Assembly: GCF_006345805.1 (NCBI RefSeq)
Contig: NC_043012.1
Location: 39,184,001 to 39,248,000, forward strand
Reading direction: 5' to 3'
DNA length: 64,000 nucleotides
DNA from: Octopus sinensis
Lineage: Eukaryota
A model generated the notes under the pieces. It did no database searches. It saw nothing but the letters and a program-made list of their open reading frames with translations, and was not told the origin of the DNA. Below, in pieces: positions 10,147-48,730 of the stretch. The position numbers were made by a program, and so were the translations under genes. Numbering within the stretch: position 1 is the first letter of the stretch; each line of letters opens with the position of its first letter.

Positions 10147-10151
10147 ATATA

Positions 10152-10203
<52 letters not shown>

Positions 10204-10396
10204 TATATACTAAGTAATTAAGGGTTTAGCAACGAATTGCCTCACCACACACCGAATTTAGAAATAGCAGTCAAAGAGTTATAGCTATTCTTTCTACTAA
10301 AAGGGAGATCTCAGTAAAAACACAGCACTTGAAAGGCAAACACAGACAGGTAAGAGAGAATGAAATGACGGCAATCTATCATACAATTTTAAGTCA

Positions 10397-10487
10397 CCTA
10401 CGGACGTACGTTTCGAAATTAAGTTTTAGGAAAGCATAAGAATTAGATAATCATGTCTTACCCAACTTATTTTCTCATCAGCGTAGG
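10397..10487 (-). ncRNA. Type I hammerhead ribozyme (A1)
   Basis: Minus strand: CCUACG-CUGAUGA-GAAAAUAAGUU...AACUUAAUUUC-GAAA-CGUACG-UC-CGUAGG. Perfect 6-bp stem I, full core, long stem II, palindromic stem III (ACGUACGU), GUC site; predicted cut between 10403 and 10402. Confidence 0.9.
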
Positions 10488-10979
10488 ACACTACAACTAT
10501 GAATAATTGTATATTAAATTTCGAGATACTAGAAGGCATCATCTCAACTCAGTATCAGAGCGAGCTAAAGCCGTTACCAGTATCACCAAATTCAAAATGT
10601 GAATGAAAGTTTGTGTCACCAACCCCTTCCCACCCGCGTGTAGCCAAGACAAGATGCTGTGGTCATTTACTGGAATGAAATATGGCTATCAGTAACAATA
10701 TAGGGTGAAATTAATTAATTTGGAATAATCATTAATTACACCAAGTGGATCTCGGCATGTAAAAGCCTCATTCGAGGAAAGTTTAAGTAATACTAAGTAA
10801 TTAAGGGTTTAGCAACGAATTGCCTCACCACACACCGAATTTAGAAATAGCAGTCAAAGAGTTATAGCTATTCTTTCTACTAAAAGGGAGATCTCAGTAA
10901 AAACACAGCACTTGAAAGGCAAACACAGACAGGTAAGAGAGAATGAAATGACGGCAATCTATCATACAATTTTAAGTCA

Positions 10980-11070
10980 CCTACGGACGTACGTTTCGAA
11001 ATTAAGTTTTAGGAAAGCATAAGAATTAGATAATCATGTCTTACCCAACTTCTTTTCTCATCAGCGTAGA
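10980..11070 (-). ncRNA. Type I hammerhead ribozyme (A2)
   Basis: Same motif 583 nt away; stem I UCUACG/CGUAGG keeps pairing through U-G; predicted cut between 10986 and 10985. Confidence 0.88.
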
Positions 11071-11126
11071 ACACTACAATTATGAATAATTGTATATTAA
11101 ATTTCGAGATACTAGAAGGCATCATC

Positions 11127-11422
11127 TGCAACAGCTTGGGTTTCAGAGGACCACAGCTCTTTAACATCCTCCCTAAATGCCTGAGAGACTTACATGGTGT
11201 GGATGTGGGTTTCTTTAAAACTAAACTGGATCTCTTCTTGTTGTGAGTCCCAGATGAACCTACCTCACGACAGGAGACGCGGATGCGGGCAGCAGCATCG
11301 AACTCCCTTGTTGATCAACTGCCACGTATCAGAGGTGGATTCACAAATTAGTGTAGCTCGTTCAGCGGTGGTGCCCCAGCATGGCCGCGGCCTTCGGGCT
11401 AAAACATTTTTAAGGATTTAGG
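11127..11422 (+). mobile_element. 3' end of a CR1-group LINE (ORF2 C-terminus and 3' UTR)
   Basis: Manual translation from 11127: CNSLGFRGPQLFNILPKCLRDLHGVDVGFFKTKLDLFLL*VPDEP...AASNSLVDQL, typical of the post-RT end of invertebrate CR1-like ORF2. Confidence 0.7.
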
Positions 11423-11576: not shown

Positions 11577-11578
<2 letters not shown>

Positions 11579-11846
11579 AAAAAGGGGGTCGAATTAATTA
11601 ATTGTTAATAAATTCGACCAAGCAGTATTCGGTATGTAAAGACCATTTACGGTATATTTGAAGTATTAATTTATAAAAATATGTAAAGTAAAAGAATTCA
11701 CTTTACCACACACCGAACTTTTCAGAAATAGCAGCCAAAAATTTGACTATTTCTTCAACTGCAAATAAAAGTCTCCAGACATGCATACTCAGAAAAATAA
11801 CTCACATAGGTATAAGGGAAAATGAAAGATCACATCCATACGATAC

Positions 11847-11906
11847 CCGAGGACAGTCTGTTTCTGGATTTGTGGGTAAAACGCCACTTTTCCTTCATCA
11901 GCTCAG
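11847..11906 (-). ncRNA. Type I hammerhead ribozyme (B1)
   Basis: Minus strand: CUGAG-CUGAUGA-aGGAaaaGUGGcguuuuacCCACaaaUCCa-GAAA-CAGACUG-UC-CUCGG. Stem I CUGAG/CUCGG, quasi-palindromic stem III ACAG-A-CUGU, GUC site (cut 11852/11851); first pair of stem II is an A.A mismatch. Confidence 0.8.
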
Positions 11907-12402
11907 AGATTTCTTCTGATTTAGATTTGAAAATACTAAGAATCAAACATACCCGTCCGATATCTGTAACATCGGACAAACCATGCCAGACACCCAGTAC
12001 TAGCGAATCCAAAAATACGAATGAGATCTATTATTCTCCCTGTCCACCCACGTGAGTCATAGAGCATTACATTTCTACAGAGGTAAAAACTGCAGTTCAA
12101 ATTCTTGGAGAGAAAGCATTATATTTTATCAAAAAGGGGGTCGAATTATTAATTGTTAATAAATTCGACCAAGCAGTATTCGGTATGTAAAGACCATTTA
12201 CGGTATATTTGAAGTATTAATTATAAAAATATGGTTAAAGTAAAAGAATTCACTTTACCACACACCGAAACTTCAGAAATAGCAGCCAAAAATTGACATT
12301 TCTTCAACTGCAAATTAAAAGTCTCCAGACAATGCATACTCAGAAAAATAACTCACATAGGTATAGGGAAAACAAAATGAAAGATCACATCCATTACGAT
12401 AC

Positions 12403-12461
12403 CCGAGGAAGTCTGTTTCTGGATTTGTGGGTAAAACGCCACTTTTCCTTCATCAGCTCAG
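12403..12461 (-). ncRNA. Type I hammerhead ribozyme (B2), 1-nt deletion in stem III
   Basis: Same motif ~555 nt away; reads GAAACAGACUUC, lacking one G (mutation or assembly indel). Confidence 0.65.
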
Positions 12462-13002
12462 AGATTTCTTCTGATTTAGATTTGAAAATACTAAGAATCA
12501 AACATACCCGTCCGATATCTGTAACATCGGACAAACCATGCCAGACACCCAGTACTAGCGAATCCAAAAATACGAATGAGATCTATTATTCTCCCTGTCC
12601 ACCACGTGAGTCATAGAGCATTACATTTCTACAGAGGTAAAAACTGCAGTTCAAATTCTTGGAGAGAAAGCATTATATTGTTATCAAAAAAGGGGGTCGA
12701 ATTAATTAATTGTTAATAAATTCGACCAAGCAGTATTCGGTATGTAACCATTTACGGTATATTTGAAGTATTAATTATAAAAATATGGTAAAGTAAAAGA
12801 ATTCACTTTACCACACACCGAACTTTTCAGAAATAGCAGCCAAAATTTGGCTATTTCTTCAACTGCAAATAAAAGTCTCCAGACAATGCATACTCAGAAA
12901 AATAACTCACATAGGTATAAGGGAAAAACAATGAAAGATCACATCCATCTGGAGACTTTTATTTGCAGTTGAAGAAATAGCCAAATTTTTGGCTGCTATT
13001 TC

Positions 13003-13076
<74 letters not shown>

Positions 13077-22079: not shown

Positions 22080-22992
22080 ATGGGTTCTCACGGGTAAGCT
22101 TTGGTTTTTCTATCCAGAGATTTTCAAACCAGGATTTACGTTCTATTATTTATAGCCTGATCTAAATCTATAGGGAATTAAACGTGCCAAACAATTAGAC
22201 ACAAAAACACTAAGAACAAAAAAACATAGCACCACACCTCAAACCAAAACATTACTTTTTATATCAACACACAACCCCAGAAACAGTGAGGCATTCAACA
22301 CTATTGTGCAAACTCTCCCTTTAGTAACTAGAGATCCAAAAATGAACGACATCCTGAAAACACACAAACTCATCAAATGCAAAAAACAAGACAAATCGCT
22401 AAAGAGACTACTAACAAATGCGAAGCTTTACAAAACAACCACGAAACCAACAGTTGAAAAATGTGGACGCCCGAACAGTGGCACCTGCCCCAACCTGCTT
22501 GACGGCTCGGATTTCCTTTTCAAACAAGGACAGATGTTCACAATTAAAACCAATTTTACCTGTGCCTCTGAGAACCTAATTTATGTAATAACCTGCTCGG
22601 GTTGCAGTCATTTTTACATTGGACAAACGAGTTTAACTTTGAGAAAGAGAATCACTCTGTATAAGGAGCAAATCCGTTTCCCGCAATACAGACAAATTCC
22701 TCTCGGTGAACACATAGAAAAATGTGCAGGTAACATCAAGCCAAATTTCACAGTCTTCCCTTTCTACCAGTGCAAAGACGCAATTTCTCAACAAGAACGC
22801 TTAAATAAAGAAACTTTTTTCATTGAAAAACACAAAACACGTCTTAATAGGCACGCATAACCAACTTTTATATTTTTACATATCACATCACTGTATATAA
22901 ATCCCCCTTCTAAACAAGGTCCCTTTTTTAAAACCTGTCTCTTTTCTGAAATTCATTGCATGCCCAACGCCGGAAGTCACCGCACGCCACTG

Positions 22993-31479: not shown

Positions 31480-31512
<33 letters not shown>

Positions 31513-31728
31513 TATATGGTATTTAAGTAGACAAATGAATTATCTTATTACGGATAATTCGAAGATAACCGATACCTGGGTAGCAAACTCACAACAGAAA
31601 AAGCACGGTTGAAGTTACGACCATAGGGCATAAAATCCGTGCCTTAGTGCGGAAATTTGAAGTTTAATTTAATATATTAAGTATAGGAAAGAATGGAGCT
31701 GAACGAAGATTTAACAAAGTTCCTTTTT

Positions 31729-31814
31729 TATTTCGACATATGTTTCGAAGTCTGCAAAATCCCTAATTCCGAATGAATAAGGAGTCAATTATGCAGCTTT
31801 CTCTTCAGGGAAAA
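31729..31814 (-). ncRNA. Type I hammerhead ribozyme in PLE 3' region (weak stem I)
   Basis: Minus strand: UUUUCC-CUGAAGA-GAAAGCUGCA...UGCAGACUUC-GAAA-CAUAUG-UC-GAAAUA; palindromic stem III ACAUAUGU and GUC site. Confidence 0.75.
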
Positions 31815-32365
31815 CCAGGAACTTAATTCTCCAACAAAATGCACAAGTTTTTCGATGACTGCTCACTAGGAGCCCATAGAGATAATGATAAATATTGTCT
31901 ATTTATAGGGGGTGACGCCAGATTGGTTGAAAGTAGGAGAAAATGTCAGTTAAAATAGGGTTCAATCAGGGTTGGTGAAGGAAGGTAAAGGAAAACTAAA
32001 GTGAGGGAATGTATTCTCTATGACTGGTGTTTATATTTGATTTATTTTATGAATGAGTGCTCGTATGTATGTGTGTGTAAATTTGCCTTAATGTGTGTGT
32101 GTGTGTCTGTGACTGAGTGAATGTATGTGTAGAAGGCAGAGAAAAAGAATTAACGGTCAAGAGGTGAAAAGACTGTGTCTGTGTGTTCGAATGTGTCAAC
32201 TTAAGAGGGAGAGGGTAGAAAGAGCCACAATAGTAATGACAAGAGACAAGGTTACTGCTGGAATTGGTAGTGTTCTTAGCAATTATGAGAAAGTCTTATA
32301 GACTAAAGGGATGAGAAATCACAAATTAATTTAATAGGAAGTCCAGGGGTTATCTATATTAGACT

Positions 32366-32857
32366 TCATTGGTATGAGTGAAAGGTATGATTTTTCCAGT
32401 GAAGGCATCTGAAAGATCGTTCGACAATCGAATTTATTACTTGGCCTCGAGCAAACAGAATATGAAAGAGTTCGGAATTACAGAGGGCACAGATTTTTCT
32501 GCCCTTATCAAACGGTAAGGACACTGATAATATTGACCATTCCAGCTTAAAAGTTGAATTTGCGTTCTTCAAACGCCAGATTAATTTGCTTAGCCCCGTG
32601 GCGTGCTGTTTACTGTTATCACGAAACGTGGAAAAATGATTTGATATCCTTGTGGCTAATTTCGAGGAGGTTGCCCCTATATAGAGGTAGACATCGGATC
32701 CAGTAGAAATTTTGCACTGGTAAGTGGTGTTTCTAATTTTGGAGTTATATGATAGGAACCCTAATCTATTGGGATTAGTTTCCGATACTAATACAGCGTT
32801 CTTATTTCTATGATGGGTGTAAAAATTACTGCTGGATTTGGGCACAATACTATTCAT
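32366..32857 (-). CDS. PLE GIY-YIG endonuclease (partial ORF)
   Basis: TTYQCKI...YIGATSSKLATRISNHFSTFR...TGLSKLIWRLK...WSIL...CALCNSE...CLH. Confidence 0.85.
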   Translation of the reverse strand: MNSIVPKSSSNFYTHHRNKNAVLVSETNPNRLGFLSYNSKIRNTTYQCKISTGSDVYLYIGATSSKLATRISNHFSTFRDNSKQHATGLSKLIWRLKNANSTFKLEWSILSVSLPFDKGRKICALCNSELFHILFARGQVINSIVERSFRCLHWKNHTFHSYQ

Positions 32858-33140
32858 CCTATTTTCATTACTATTTAAGGCAATATCACCTGCACATTCC
32901 CTGTTTCTGGGAATGCTGTGATTGTTATTGTCCGTAAAGCTACTGTTGTTAAAAACGCGGCTACTATTATTGCTGAGACCCCCTCCGTTAATGACCAGGC
33001 CAGTGCTCTTATCCTTATTACTATTAATAACGCGTTATTGGACTCCTTATTCATTCGGAATTAGGGATTTTGCAGACTTCGAAACATGTCGAAAATAAAA
33101 TAAAGGAACTTTGTTAAATCTTCGTTCAGCTCCATTCTTT

Positions 33141-45150: not shown

Positions 45151-45188
<38 letters not shown>

Positions 45189-45210
45189 ATGTTACATTAC
45201 TCGGTAGTCA

Positions 45211-45273
45211 AGATAAAACTCTGAGTTTCAGATGCCGAAGTGGAAATCCACAACACCATCTCTTCGGTTATCT
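45211..45273 (-). ncRNA. Variant hammerhead-like motif in PLE 3' region
   Basis: Reverse complement of the motif at 47561-47623. Confidence 0.55.
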
Positions 45274-45999
45274 GGCAATTTGAAAACGTTATGAAAAAAT
45301 ACCGTTAAAAATGAAGGAAATTACTCTGTTATAACTCTGCTTTGCCTGCGTACTTAACATCGCTCGCATTTTTCGTCATAAAAATTATATAAAAATACAT
45401 AAAAATATATAAAAATATATAAAAATATATAAAATCTTCTGGGACATAACACAGAAAGCATGTTCTATCCGTTTTCTTTAGGGGACCAAAAACGTAACAG
45501 AATTTAGTCACATGTGGGCATGATCCGAAAAGCTCTGTCCTTGTATTTAGACATGTGGTAGGGTCTAAGCTGCTTTTCCAGATAAGCCATCTCTCCATGT
45601 CGCATAAACCGCACCTTCCGCTGCCGTTAGTATAGGGCTTACATCTGGCCAAAATCTTCCATTGTATGTTATAATCGACACCTTTATCTCTAAAGACCAA
45701 ATAGATTGGATAATTGTGTCGCTTTTCTTTTGTTCCAGTGCCTAAAGCTCAAAGTGTGGTTATTGAACCTGGCCTTGAAATTACCCTCTGTCAGGCCCAC
45801 GTATTTCTTCGTCGAAACGGTGTCTTTAGTGGTTATAGAGTTTACGGTAGCTTCATATATGATGGTCTTGGACATGCAAGCTCCATTTAGCGGGCACAAT
45901 TCTTTATTCCTGCATGAACAGCTGTTTTCTTCTTGTGTTTTTTGTATGTTATGATTGATTATGTTTTTAAAATTGGTAGTTGAACTAAAACTAATTTTT

Positions 46000-46642
46000 A
46001 AATTGTGTCTATTAAAGAGTTTCCTATAAGCATGGTTAACTGGAAAATGTCTATCTATCAGTGCTAGGAAATTTTACCTATATTGAAGGCCACCTCGGGT
46101 GAGTAAGGGGGCGTAAACCAGATGACCTTCCTATTTCTATTATTCCTTTTCCTTATTGTTGGGCTGGTGATAGGTGTATTTTATTTTTTCGCTAAAACCA
46201 CTATCTTTTAAAGCTTTATTATAAACTGGGGCAACGCTATTGAAGATGTCCTCATTAGATGAGAGGCTAGAAATCCTCTTACTAATATTTTTAACTAAAT
46301 TTTTGAATACTATAGGGGGATGGCATGAACCTACATTAATATAACTTAGTCTATCATTGGGCTTCCTATAAGGCTTATAAATATTATTATTAAGATCTAA
46401 GGAACGTCTAAGAAATTGACAACCGTCAGGTTAGTGTCTATAGTTATACTAAGTCCGAAGTGTTTCATTAACTGGATAATATCCTTCCTAAAACGATCTT
46501 GTGCTGGTCCATTTGTATTAGCTGTTAAGGCGAGGGCATCATCTTTGTAGATGGCGAAATGTACGTTAGGGAATGTCTTACCGAAGGTATCTAGGAGAAA
46601 GAGTCCAATTAGATCACAGATGCCTGCCCCATCATATGAACC
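46000..46642 (-). pseudogene. PLE reverse transcriptase fragment (frameshifted)
   Basis: Manual translation: GSYDGAGICDLIGLFLLDTFGKTFPNVHFAIYKDDALAL...VVNFLDV...YKPYRKPNDRLSYINVGSCHPP. Confidence 0.85.
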
Positions 46643-46828
46643 AATTCGATATTGTTGATTTTTATGCCTCTATCTCTAAAGAACTGCTAGATAAAGCCCT
46701 AATCTTCGCTAGTGACTTCATAGAAATTAGTACCAATGATAAGGATATAATCTTCCATGCTAGAAAGACATTACTTTTCAGTGAGAATGCAAAGTGGGTA
46801 AAAAACACCGACACGGAGGGCGCTTTCG

Positions 46829-47340
46829 AAAAATTAGTTTTAGTTCAACTACCAATTTTAAAAACATAATCAATCATAACATACAAAAAACACAAGAAGA
46901 AAACAGCTGTTCATGCAGGAATAAAGAATTGTGCCCGCTAAATGGAGCTTGCATGTCCAAGACCATCATATATGAAGCTACCGTAAACTCTATAACCACT
47001 AAAGACACCGTTTCGACGAAGAAATACGTGGGCCTGACAGAGGGTAATTTCAAGGCCAGGTTCAATAACCACACTTTGAGCTTTAGGCACTGGAACAAAA
47101 GAAAAGCGACACAATTATCCAATCATATTTGGTCTTTAAGAGATAAAGGTGTCGATTATAACATACAATGGAAGATTTTGGCCAGATGTAAGCCCTATAC
47201 TAACGGCAGCGAAGGTGCGGTTTATGCGACATGGAGAGATGGCTTATCTGGAAAAGCAGCTTAGACCCTACCACATGTCTAAATACAAGGACAGAGCTTT
47301 TCGGATCATGCCCACATGTGACTAAATTTCTGTTACGTTT
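46829..47340 (+). pseudogene. PLE GIY-YIG endonuclease (frameshifted)
   Basis: CSCRNKELCPLNGAC..IIYEATV...YVGLTEGNFKARFNNHTLSFR...TQLSNHIW...WKIL...CGLCDMER...LNTRTELFGSCPH. Confidence 0.9.
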
Positions 47341-47560
47341 TTGGTCCCCTAAAGAAAACGGATAGAACATGCTTTCTGTGTTATGTCCCAAGAAGATTTT
47401 ATATATTTTTATATATTTTTATATATTTTTTATGTATTTTTATATAATTTTTATGACGAAAAATGCGAGCGATGTATAAGTACGCAGGCAAAGCAGAGTT
47501 ATAACAGAGTAATTTCCCTTCATTTTTAACGGTATTTTTTCATAACGTTTTCAAATAGCC

Positions 47561-47623
47561 AGATAACCGAAGAGATGGTGTTGTGGATTTCCACTTCGGC
47601 ATCTGAAACTCAGAGTTTTATCT
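47561..47623 (+). ncRNA. Variant hammerhead-like motif in PLE 3' region
   Basis: AGAUAA-CCGAAGA-GAUG...GUGG/CCAC...CAUC-U-GAAA-CUCAGAG-UU-UUAUCU: perfect stem I, U4C core, extra U before G12, quasi-palindromic stem III, GUU site. Confidence 0.6.
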
Positions 47624-47788
47624 TGACTACCGAGTAATGTAACATATTGTATAGATAAATTTCCTCTATTTACATAATATTGAGGTCTCTTTCTTTCTTT
47701 TGTTATCTTACCGTTTTATCAATAATATATATATATATATATATATGTGTTGTGTGTGTGTGTGTGTGTGTGGTGTGTGTGTGTGGTG

Positions 47789-47826
<38 letters not shown>

Positions 47827-47839
47827 CATGCATGTGTGA

Positions 47840-47868
<29 letters not shown>

Positions 47869-47870
<2 letters not shown>

Positions 47871-48730
47871 CAATAATATGTTACATTACTCGATAGTCAA
47901 GATAAAACTCTGAGTTTCAGATGCCGAAGTGGAAATCCACAATACCATCTCTTCGGTTATCTGGCTATTTGAAAACGCTATGAAAAAATACCGTTATATA
48001 AAGGGAAATTACTGTGTTATAACTCTGCTTGCCTGCGTACTTATACATCGCTCGCATTTTTCGTCATAAAAATTATATAAAAATACATAAAATACATAAA
48101 AATACAAAAGAAAAGCGACACAATTATCTAATCATATTTTGTCTTTAAGAGATAAAGGTGTCGATTATAACATACATTGGAAGATTTTGGCCAGATGTAA
48201 GCCCTATACCAACGGCAGCGGAAGGTGCGGTCTATGCGACATGGAGAGATGGCTTATCTGGAAAAGCAGCTTAGACCCTACTACATGTCTAAACACAAGG
48301 ACAAAACTTTTCGGTTCATGCCCACATGTGACTAAATTTCTGTAACGTTTTTGGTCCCCTAAAGAAAACAGATAGAACATGCTTTCTATGTTATGTCCCA
48401 AGAAGATTTTATATATTTTTATATATTTTTATATATTTTTTATGTATTTTTATATAATTGTTATGACGAAAAATGCGAGCGATGTATAAGTACGCAGGCA
48501 AGCAGAGTTATAACACAGTAATTTCCCTTTATATAACGGTATTTTTCATAGTGTTTTCAAATAGCCAGATAACCAAAGAGATGGTGTTGTGGATTTCCAC
48601 TTCGGCATCTGAAACTCAGAGTTTTATCTTGACTATCGAGTAGTGTAACATATTATTGTATAGATAAATTTCCTCTATTTACATAATATTGAGGTCTCTT
48701 TCTTTCTTTTATCTTACCGTTTTACCAATA
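47869..48730. mobile_element. Second, shorter copy of the same PLE: inverted 3' segment (47869-48092) plus 3' part (48104-48730)
   Basis: ORF 48139..48345 is the GIY-YIG C-terminus; hammerhead-like motifs at 47900-47962 (-) and 48567-48629 (+, core mutated to CCAAAGA); (TA)n on both flanks. Confidence 0.9.

Follow-up and report, generated by a model that had tools for sequence, protein, structure and literature searches.

Non-LTR retrozymes of metazoans are a published class (Cervera & de la Pena 2020, PMC7229834); circles have been described there for coral, mussel and axolotl, together with ligation by RtcB in vitro, and a rolling-circle cycle has been proposed. A recent preprint (Li, Clavereau & Pollet 2026, bioRxiv 10.64898/2026.07.22.740005) argues that animal retrozymes, with lengths of 51-972 bp, are non-autonomous derivatives of Penelope-like elements (PLEs); its sample comprises 35 species (31 vertebrates, 3 insects and 1 coral), and the frog retrozyme dimers that it describes were 8/9 uncleaved and 1/9 cleaved in vitro. 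Cleavage as a dimer, via a palindromic stem III, has also been described (PMC4209133). For PLEs themselves, an anole element studied in vitro used unprocessed RNA, the hammerhead being dispensable, and the PLE tail was traced to two internal reverse transcriptase (RT) start sites (Frangieh et al., PMC11167929). The tail, the inversion and the bias towards (TA)n were described by Craig et al. 2021 (PMC8557442; bioRxiv version), from whom we also take the criteria for Hydra-type elements, and who list Hydra-1_Obim for Octopus bimaculoides with a preference for (TA)n. The mobilisation of animal retrozymes is still a hypothesis in the two defining papers, and why PLEs retain a hammerhead is an open question, because the sole in vitro system did not need one.

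Here we describe family A, a repeat found in the window, by which we mean the whole stretch of 64,000 nucleotides of Octopus sinensis DNA that was analysed. The initial annotation was not aware of such a family having been characterised in cephalopods, and among the entries listed our full-text literature search likewise revealed no retrozyme from this group; Repbase or Dfam may include the repeat under a different name. Cephalopods are not mentioned in the main text of PMC7229834, and the words 'ribozyme' and 'retrozyme' do not occur in the main text of a 2026 repeat annotation of Octopus vulgaris (PMC13282606). The retrozyme class and its Penelope origin are already known; what is added here is the insertion record. 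We suggest that family A is a self-cleaving, circularised 583-nt retrozyme that would be copied into (TA)n by a PLE protein, an account to which we assign a probability of about 0.65.

Two hammerheads in a partial tandem

The minus strand of 10208-11127 carries two type I hammerheads, both complete (Table 1). They lie exactly 583 nt apart, as initially annotated, with cores at 11064 and 10481, and the cleavage positions that had been predicted, 10986/10985 and 10403/10402, agree with the coordinates that we recomputed. Both copies have the same build, in which a stem I of 6 bp and a stem II region of 60 nt are followed by GAAA-CGUACG-UC; stem III is 2 bp in the monomer form. The unit had been described as duplicated in tandem, but the insertion actually holds 1.58 units, and thus only one complete cleavage-to-cleavage monomer, in the form of 337-bp repeats that flank 246 unique bases. 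The repeats differ at 10469, 10487 and 10497, and hence not in stem I alone. The stem I change from C-G to U-G, noted as preserving the pairing, is indeed there; however, it is found in 1/54 aligned copies, and such a singleton provides no evidence of selection.

Table 1. Coordinates of family A and its surroundings in the window.
Feature	Position	Strand	Description
Family A insertion	10208..11127	-	1.58 units, 920 bp
5' end of insertion	near 11127-11132	-	truncated
3' end of insertion		-	'short' internal site, monomer position ~196, inside (TA)n
Predicted monomer	10403..10985	-	cleavage to cleavage, 583 nt
Hammerhead copy 1	10980..11070	-	
Copy 1, stem I	11070-11065 / 10985-10980	-	UCUACG / CGUAGG
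Copy 1, core	11064-11058	-	CUGAUGA
Copy 1, stem II region	11057-10998	-	
Copy 1, GAAA	10997-10994	-	
Copy 1, CGUACG-UC	10993-10986	-	
Hammerhead copy 2	10397..10487	-	
Copy 2, stem I	10487-10482 / 10402-10397	-	CCUACG / CGUAGG
Copy 2, core	10481-10475	-	
Copy 2, GAAA	10414-10411	-	
Copy 2, predicted cleavage	10403/10402	-	
Downstream direct repeat	10208..10544	-	337 bp, pseudo-LTR-like, product of the partial tandem
Upstream direct repeat	10791..11127	-	337 bp, 3 mismatches to the downstream repeat
Target microsatellite	10147..10209	n/a	(TA)n at the 3' end of the element
Flank outside the element	11126..11422	+	3' fragment of another high-copy repeat
Structured domain	10686..10881	-	monomer ~105-300, common to families A, B and C

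A loose hammerhead core pattern was matched 3 times across the window, where 0.05 matches would be expected, and none of 100 shuffles reaches this number; the third match lies within a coding PLE (31735-31808). The Rfam search that had been proposed as a check gave no hammerhead, either among the 150 matches listed for the whole window at E<=1 or in a local scan of the locus at E<=10. The likely reason is the length of the stem II region, 60 nt. Tandem-repeat searches, including TRF with its period limit of 500, did not list the 583-bp repeat, and microsatellites dominated their output.

Outside the element, the flank is a repeat that we take to be LINE-like, a label given by its short peptide. 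At 11126-11132 the 5' end of the retrozyme meets this 3' fragment head-to-head, with short microhomology. Since (TA)n is found at either outer end, the junction mimics an inverted insertion with a foreign arm.

Comparison with described elements

Family A resembles the metazoan non-LTR retrozymes in that its tandem unit is non-coding and low in GC, and in that each unit carries one type I hammerhead whose stem III is short and palindromic; its monomer is predicted to be highly self-paired with the ribozyme free to fold, it lacks LTR, PBS and PPT, and it coexists with PLEs. A molluscan precedent among these retrozymes, at 350-390 nt compared with the 583 nt of A, is found in mussel. The unit lies outside the 170-400 nt of PMC7229834 but inside the 51-972 bp of the preprint. 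It also differs in the stem II region, with 60 nt in place of 4 bp plus a loop, and Rfam misses it; furthermore, its insertions into (TA)n are short and dispersed, and bear the marks of tails and inversions.

With the Hydra- and Neptune-clade PLEs, family A shares the targeting of (TA)n, partial tandems, 5' truncation, an inverted 5' arm, an optional tail from two internal starts and a hammerhead near the 3' end. Unlike these elements it has no ORF, its tail measures ~100 nt rather than 30-40, and its 3' end lies ~196 nt past the cleavage site rather than ~50; there is also no sequence similarity to the three coding PLE families sampled. In plant LTR retrozymes, too, two hammerheads in direct repeats flank a non-coding monomer of ~600 nt (as given in PMC7229834 and the preprint), but their ribozyme is of type III whereas that of A is of type I. 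The repeats of A, a partial tandem whose 5' ends vary, are not true LTRs, and its insertion marks point to PLEs, not to Gypsy.

Family A in the genome

Family A is a dispersed, multi-copy repeat without true LTRs, in which tandem units carry at least two consecutive complete ribozymes. At least 134 matches were found in the 40 scored of 2497 candidates; exact ribozyme 22-mers number 453 genome-wide (2.7 Gb) and exact 27-mers of the downstream motif 1166, with 0 in the reversed control for both. The copies have about 75% to 99% identity, fall into several subfamilies and form arrays of up to ~3.6 units. Target-site duplications, which in non-LTR retrozymes exceed 4 bp when present, are unreadable because the flanks consist of (TA)n. 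Parts of the stretch occur in sequencing runs from five organisms, and none of the runs listed is recorded as RNA. Pieces of family A are contained in four presumed-RNA contig sets (4 of 24 runs listed), where flanking repeats are deeper; such contigs cannot reveal ends, strand or circles and were not counted for or against expression, and the junction sequence of a circle is the same as that of a tandem.

Selection on the ribozyme

In a sample of 32 distinct copies, from loci picked by a motif outside the ribozyme, the 12 bases of the catalytic core depart from the column majority in 5/376 cells (1.3%), and all 12 are intact in 26 of these 32 unselected copies. The tolerant position N7 is variant in 10/31 and stem I in 15/379 letters, while the stem II region (256/1881) and the flanks (198/1705 and 274/2484) show 11-14% variant letters. 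To judge from these copies, the catalytic bases of the hammerhead are under strong selection.

Pairing was followed in an alignment of 54 out of 80 distinct ribozyme sequences (the other 26 were omitted, mostly for indels or truncation at an edge, with some point variants among them), and is kept in 95% of cells. Three stem II pairs are changed on both sides, in 22 cells against 5.0 after shuffling (0/500), although the number of such pairs is not itself above that in shuffles (3 was reached in 291/500), and these changes represent few events, from a few subfamilies. Thus, when the copies are compared as had been proposed, core and stems prove conserved, while covariation is partial. One older subfamily has CGCGCG in place of CGUACG, with the palindrome retained. 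As counter-evidence, some subfamilies have spread with CCGAUGA, and in some that spread the pair G10.1-C11.1, which forms the base of stem II, is mismatched.

The insertion record

The insertion sample comprises 67 distinct insertions, drawn from an initial set of 91 loci (the near-identical loci L028 and L029 were dropped from this comparison), and 42 further sites, the motif-anchored sites coming from the first two contigs. Nearly all arms (121/131) end at two internal regions, 170-205 nt (77 arms) or 285-310 nt (44 arms) past the cleavage site, and (TA)n adjoins 104 of those 121 arm ends; the 5' ends vary. An inverted arm is present in 25/67 insertions, and a short end is paired with a long end in 34/36 inverted insertions; this pairing is the PLE tail. 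Two 3' ends, an inverted 5'-truncated arm, partial tandems and an AT-rich target are the marks of PLE mobilisation, and their presence supports the earlier proposal that family A may be moved by a PLE RT. Assignment of family A to the known class of non-LTR retrozymes, as a non-autonomous PLE, is supported by these sequence features, and we have little doubt that it is a Penelope-mobilised, non-autonomous hammerhead element.

The cleavage site is reached by 51 arms, none of which stops within 6 nt of it; 9 stop within 40 nt, a rate similar to that in other bins. The template was therefore continuous there, being either uncleaved or religated. If it was uncleaved, the same Penelope-type element would be copied from linear read-through RNA of multi-unit loci, with no need of a circle, and the hammerhead would only trim transcripts or act as a protein-binding fold. 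The absence of RT stops at the cleavage site is predicted by a linear template too, multi-unit source loci exist (L259, L263), and the dominant substrate of the anole PLE was unprocessed RNA (PMC11167929). On such a template, however, daughters could not outgrow their parent, yet multi-unit arrays occur in several subfamilies; those 85%, 92% and 96% identical to the window each have arrays, with units that are mutually nearest, and family B (see below) reaches ~8 units, in some arrays together with inverted arms. A linear template also does not sit well with the specific conservation of the catalytic bases, beyond that of the stems, and we regard it as a real, if rather unlikely, rival. The simplest way to reconcile a catalytic core that is conserved with a template that is unbroken at the cut would be for the RNA to be cleaved, ligated into a circle and then reverse-transcribed in rolling-circle fashion, and we believe that a circular monomer is probably the usual template.

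Relationships within insertions bear on how the tandems arose. The nearest relative lies in the same insertion for 24/28 full units (12 insertions), a pattern that fits a monomer bottleneck, and 45 insertion-private variants are common to units or arms, while 113 are not shared within the insertion. In short overlaps, where the comparison uses the minimum over many segments, the distance within an insertion was not below that to the nearest other insertion (23/76 tandem pairs, 15/46 inverted pairs); the full-unit test was run after it. Alternatively, pieces of ~1.5 units could insert and the arrays lengthen later by unequal crossing-over, as a satellite derived from the terminal repeat of a PLE, a growth model discussed by Li et al. 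2026 (bioRxiv 10.64898/2026.07.22.740005). Array units would then be expected to be each other's nearest relatives, as they are, and a copy of 1.58 units supplies the direct repeat for exchange. Yet tandem pairs have diverged as much as inverted-arm pairs, with medians of 0.0103 and 0.0114, although assembly error may put a floor under the distances; the tandems thus look as old as the insertion itself. Whole units are moreover found in both arms of some inverted insertions (L027, L260, L263), and the arrays are short and dispersed, so that we consider later growth by crossing-over improbable and prefer tandem copying at insertion from a circular template.

Coding Penelope-like elements

No sampled locus has an ORF with RT and GIY-YIG between the pseudo-LTRs of family A. 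PLE protein matches are present in 6/90 and 6/42 family A loci and, except at L005, lie downstream of or distant from the element. Units join head-to-tail without an ORF, and family A is therefore not merely the pseudo-LTR of a coding element; none of the copies sampled serves as the terminal repeat of such an element, and the retrozyme-like reading of the initial annotation thus survives the tests run on conservation and on this point. The sample is a fraction of all copies, and ORF-bearing copies of a PLE with this unit as its pseudo-LTR might lie outside it; coding PLEs of this genome do bear hammerheads of the same build in their 3' ends, and L005 joins a piece of PLE ORF to family A. Against this, the end of the unit runs seamlessly into its own start in multi-unit arrays, the other protein matches are placed as described above, and the PLE family at L005 has its own 3' end, unrelated to A. 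We hold a pseudo-LTR of this kind to be very improbable, and continue to treat family A as a non-autonomous element with a helper.

Three or four coding families came to light in searches with a GIY-YIG family, with two proteins of Hydra type and with one DNA sequence. Among 102 coding-PLE loci of three families (the screen left out 20 further loci), no sequence common with A or B was found beyond separate neighbouring insertions, which were inspected at L083, L159 and L173. Since no coding PLE among the loci screened shares sequence with the monomer, the helper remains a candidate only, and we lean slightly towards a Hydra-clade element. Candidates abound in this genome; one is a young Hydra-type family with an open frame of 717 codons and RWK, DKT and CxCX5C motifs; the 3' ends of a second, Hydra-like coding family carry hammerheads built like those of A. 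A third candidate is a coding family, presumably of the Neptune-like clade in view of its linker motif, which also targets (TA)n in this genome. By eye, a coding PLE at L255 is similar to Hydra-1_Obim, the Octopus bimaculoides element in the supplement of Craig et al., in line with the cephalopod origin that the initial annotation assumed; no exact 12-mer of the shared motif was found in that supplement.

Several individual PLE copies are worth describing. In the window, a truncated coding PLE with the GIY-YIG end (31500-33140, minus strand) has an inverted 5' arm and a tail of ~170 nt, and holds a full hammerhead (31735-31808) built like that of A. Two inverted insertions of the young Hydra-type family are found at 45174-48690, with a hammerhead-like motif that has a CCGAAGA core; this family has 19001 first-look candidates, many at 98% identity. 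A GIY-YIG PLE fragment of the Neptune-like type lies at 22174-22860 (plus strand). In a Neptune-like PLE elsewhere (L093:374-4077, plus strand), an upstream frame of 479 codons overlaps an RT/EN frame of 781 codons near a T-run, which suggests a frameshifted two-ORF layout.

At L005:490-2524, the second arm of an inverted PLE insertion changes over to family A sequence where the two share 8 nt of microhomology. We considered this junction as proof of a helper and rejected it as decisive; both outer ends are by eye of the long type, unlike the 34/36 single-family inversions, and a deletion between two insertions therefore fits equally well. The chimera is ambiguous between a template switch and such a deletion. 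At L215, family A is joined to a Hydra-type 3' tail.

The monomer and a proposed mechanism

As initially annotated, the unit is non-coding; the longest ATG ORF of the 583-nt monomer, read as a circle, is 38 aa. Its predicted fold is much more stable than those of shuffles, with z-scores of -5.74 (linear) and -6.3 (circular, against 30 shuffles), and has a predicted energy of -156 kcal/mol compared to -107 kcal/mol for the antisense strand, and stem I of the ribozyme forms within the predicted circular fold. The structured domain (Table 1) contains both favoured 3' ends, at ~196 (window ~10790) and at ~292-306 (window ~10687), and we infer that it is the region where the reverse transcriptase starts. 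When A, B and C were combined, the one element that RNAalifold retrieved was the terminal hairpin, which shows double-sided changes, and the long-range stem was missed; within family A alone, covariation was seen in only 1/61 pairs. A small conserved hairpin (10800-10830, minus strand; monomer ~155-185) lies just 5' of the short 3' end, and its surroundings resemble, by eye, a decayed minimal hammerhead (UGGUGAG-stem-UAAAC).

We propose that the cycle begins when transcription reads through a copy that exceeds one unit in length. The RNA would be cleaved after GUC at both ribozymes, an activity that the motif and its conservation lead us to expect, and by analogy with known hammerheads the pairing of palindromic stems III between two copies possibly assists. 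An RtcB-type ligase may then close the monomer, with its termini of 5'-OH and 2',3'-cyclic-phosphate type, as it does for other retrozymes in vitro. A Penelope-type RT/GIY-YIG protein would nick (TA)n and start cDNA at ~196 and ~299 nt past the cleavage site, inside the conserved folded domain. On a putative circular template the RT could go round as often as several times, crossing the ribozyme junction each time, and would thereby produce the structures that are observed, namely partial tandems, truncated 5' ends and arms in inverted orientation.

Family A is young and multi-copy, and offers selection on the ribozyme, passage of the RT across the junction, two mapped starts and candidate helper ORFs in one genome; the choice between a circle and an uncleaved linear template thereby becomes directly testable.

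Sister families and other hammerheads

Next to family A lies an insertion of a second family, B (11577-13003, minus strand), with a unit of ~555-561 bp present in ~2.5 units plus a 56-bp inverted arm. Its hammerhead cores are at 11901 and 12456, and in the second hammerhead one base is missing ahead of the cleavage triplet; elsewhere, arrays of this family extend up to the ~8 units mentioned above, some with inverted arms. Family C is older (L264-L293, e.g. L275:1501-1860, minus strand), with 2585 first-look candidates and a hammerhead that has ACUGUA/UACAGU as stem I and a CGCG palindrome; a PLE ORF directly upstream was found in 0/29 of its loci. B and C have the downstream domain in common with A, and their stem I differs in sequence yet pairs.

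We tentatively speculate that A, B and C form a superfamily of RNA circles of ~560-600 nt, copied in a rolling-circle manner by a Hydra-clade protein that would be recruited via the folded domain, which would also set the two starts; we would put this at somewhat less than even odds. If it is true, the insertions in this genome would directly record a transposition intermediate made of circular RNA in an animal, and would define the helper enzyme as well as the cis signal.

The octopus genome holds apparently unreported ribozyme-bearing repeats that Rfam misses. Many unrelated type I hammerheads with a palindromic stem III were also met by chance, at L064, L091, L092, L098, L129, L141, L171 and L265, which suggests an abundance of hammerhead families in this genome that may escape Rfam.
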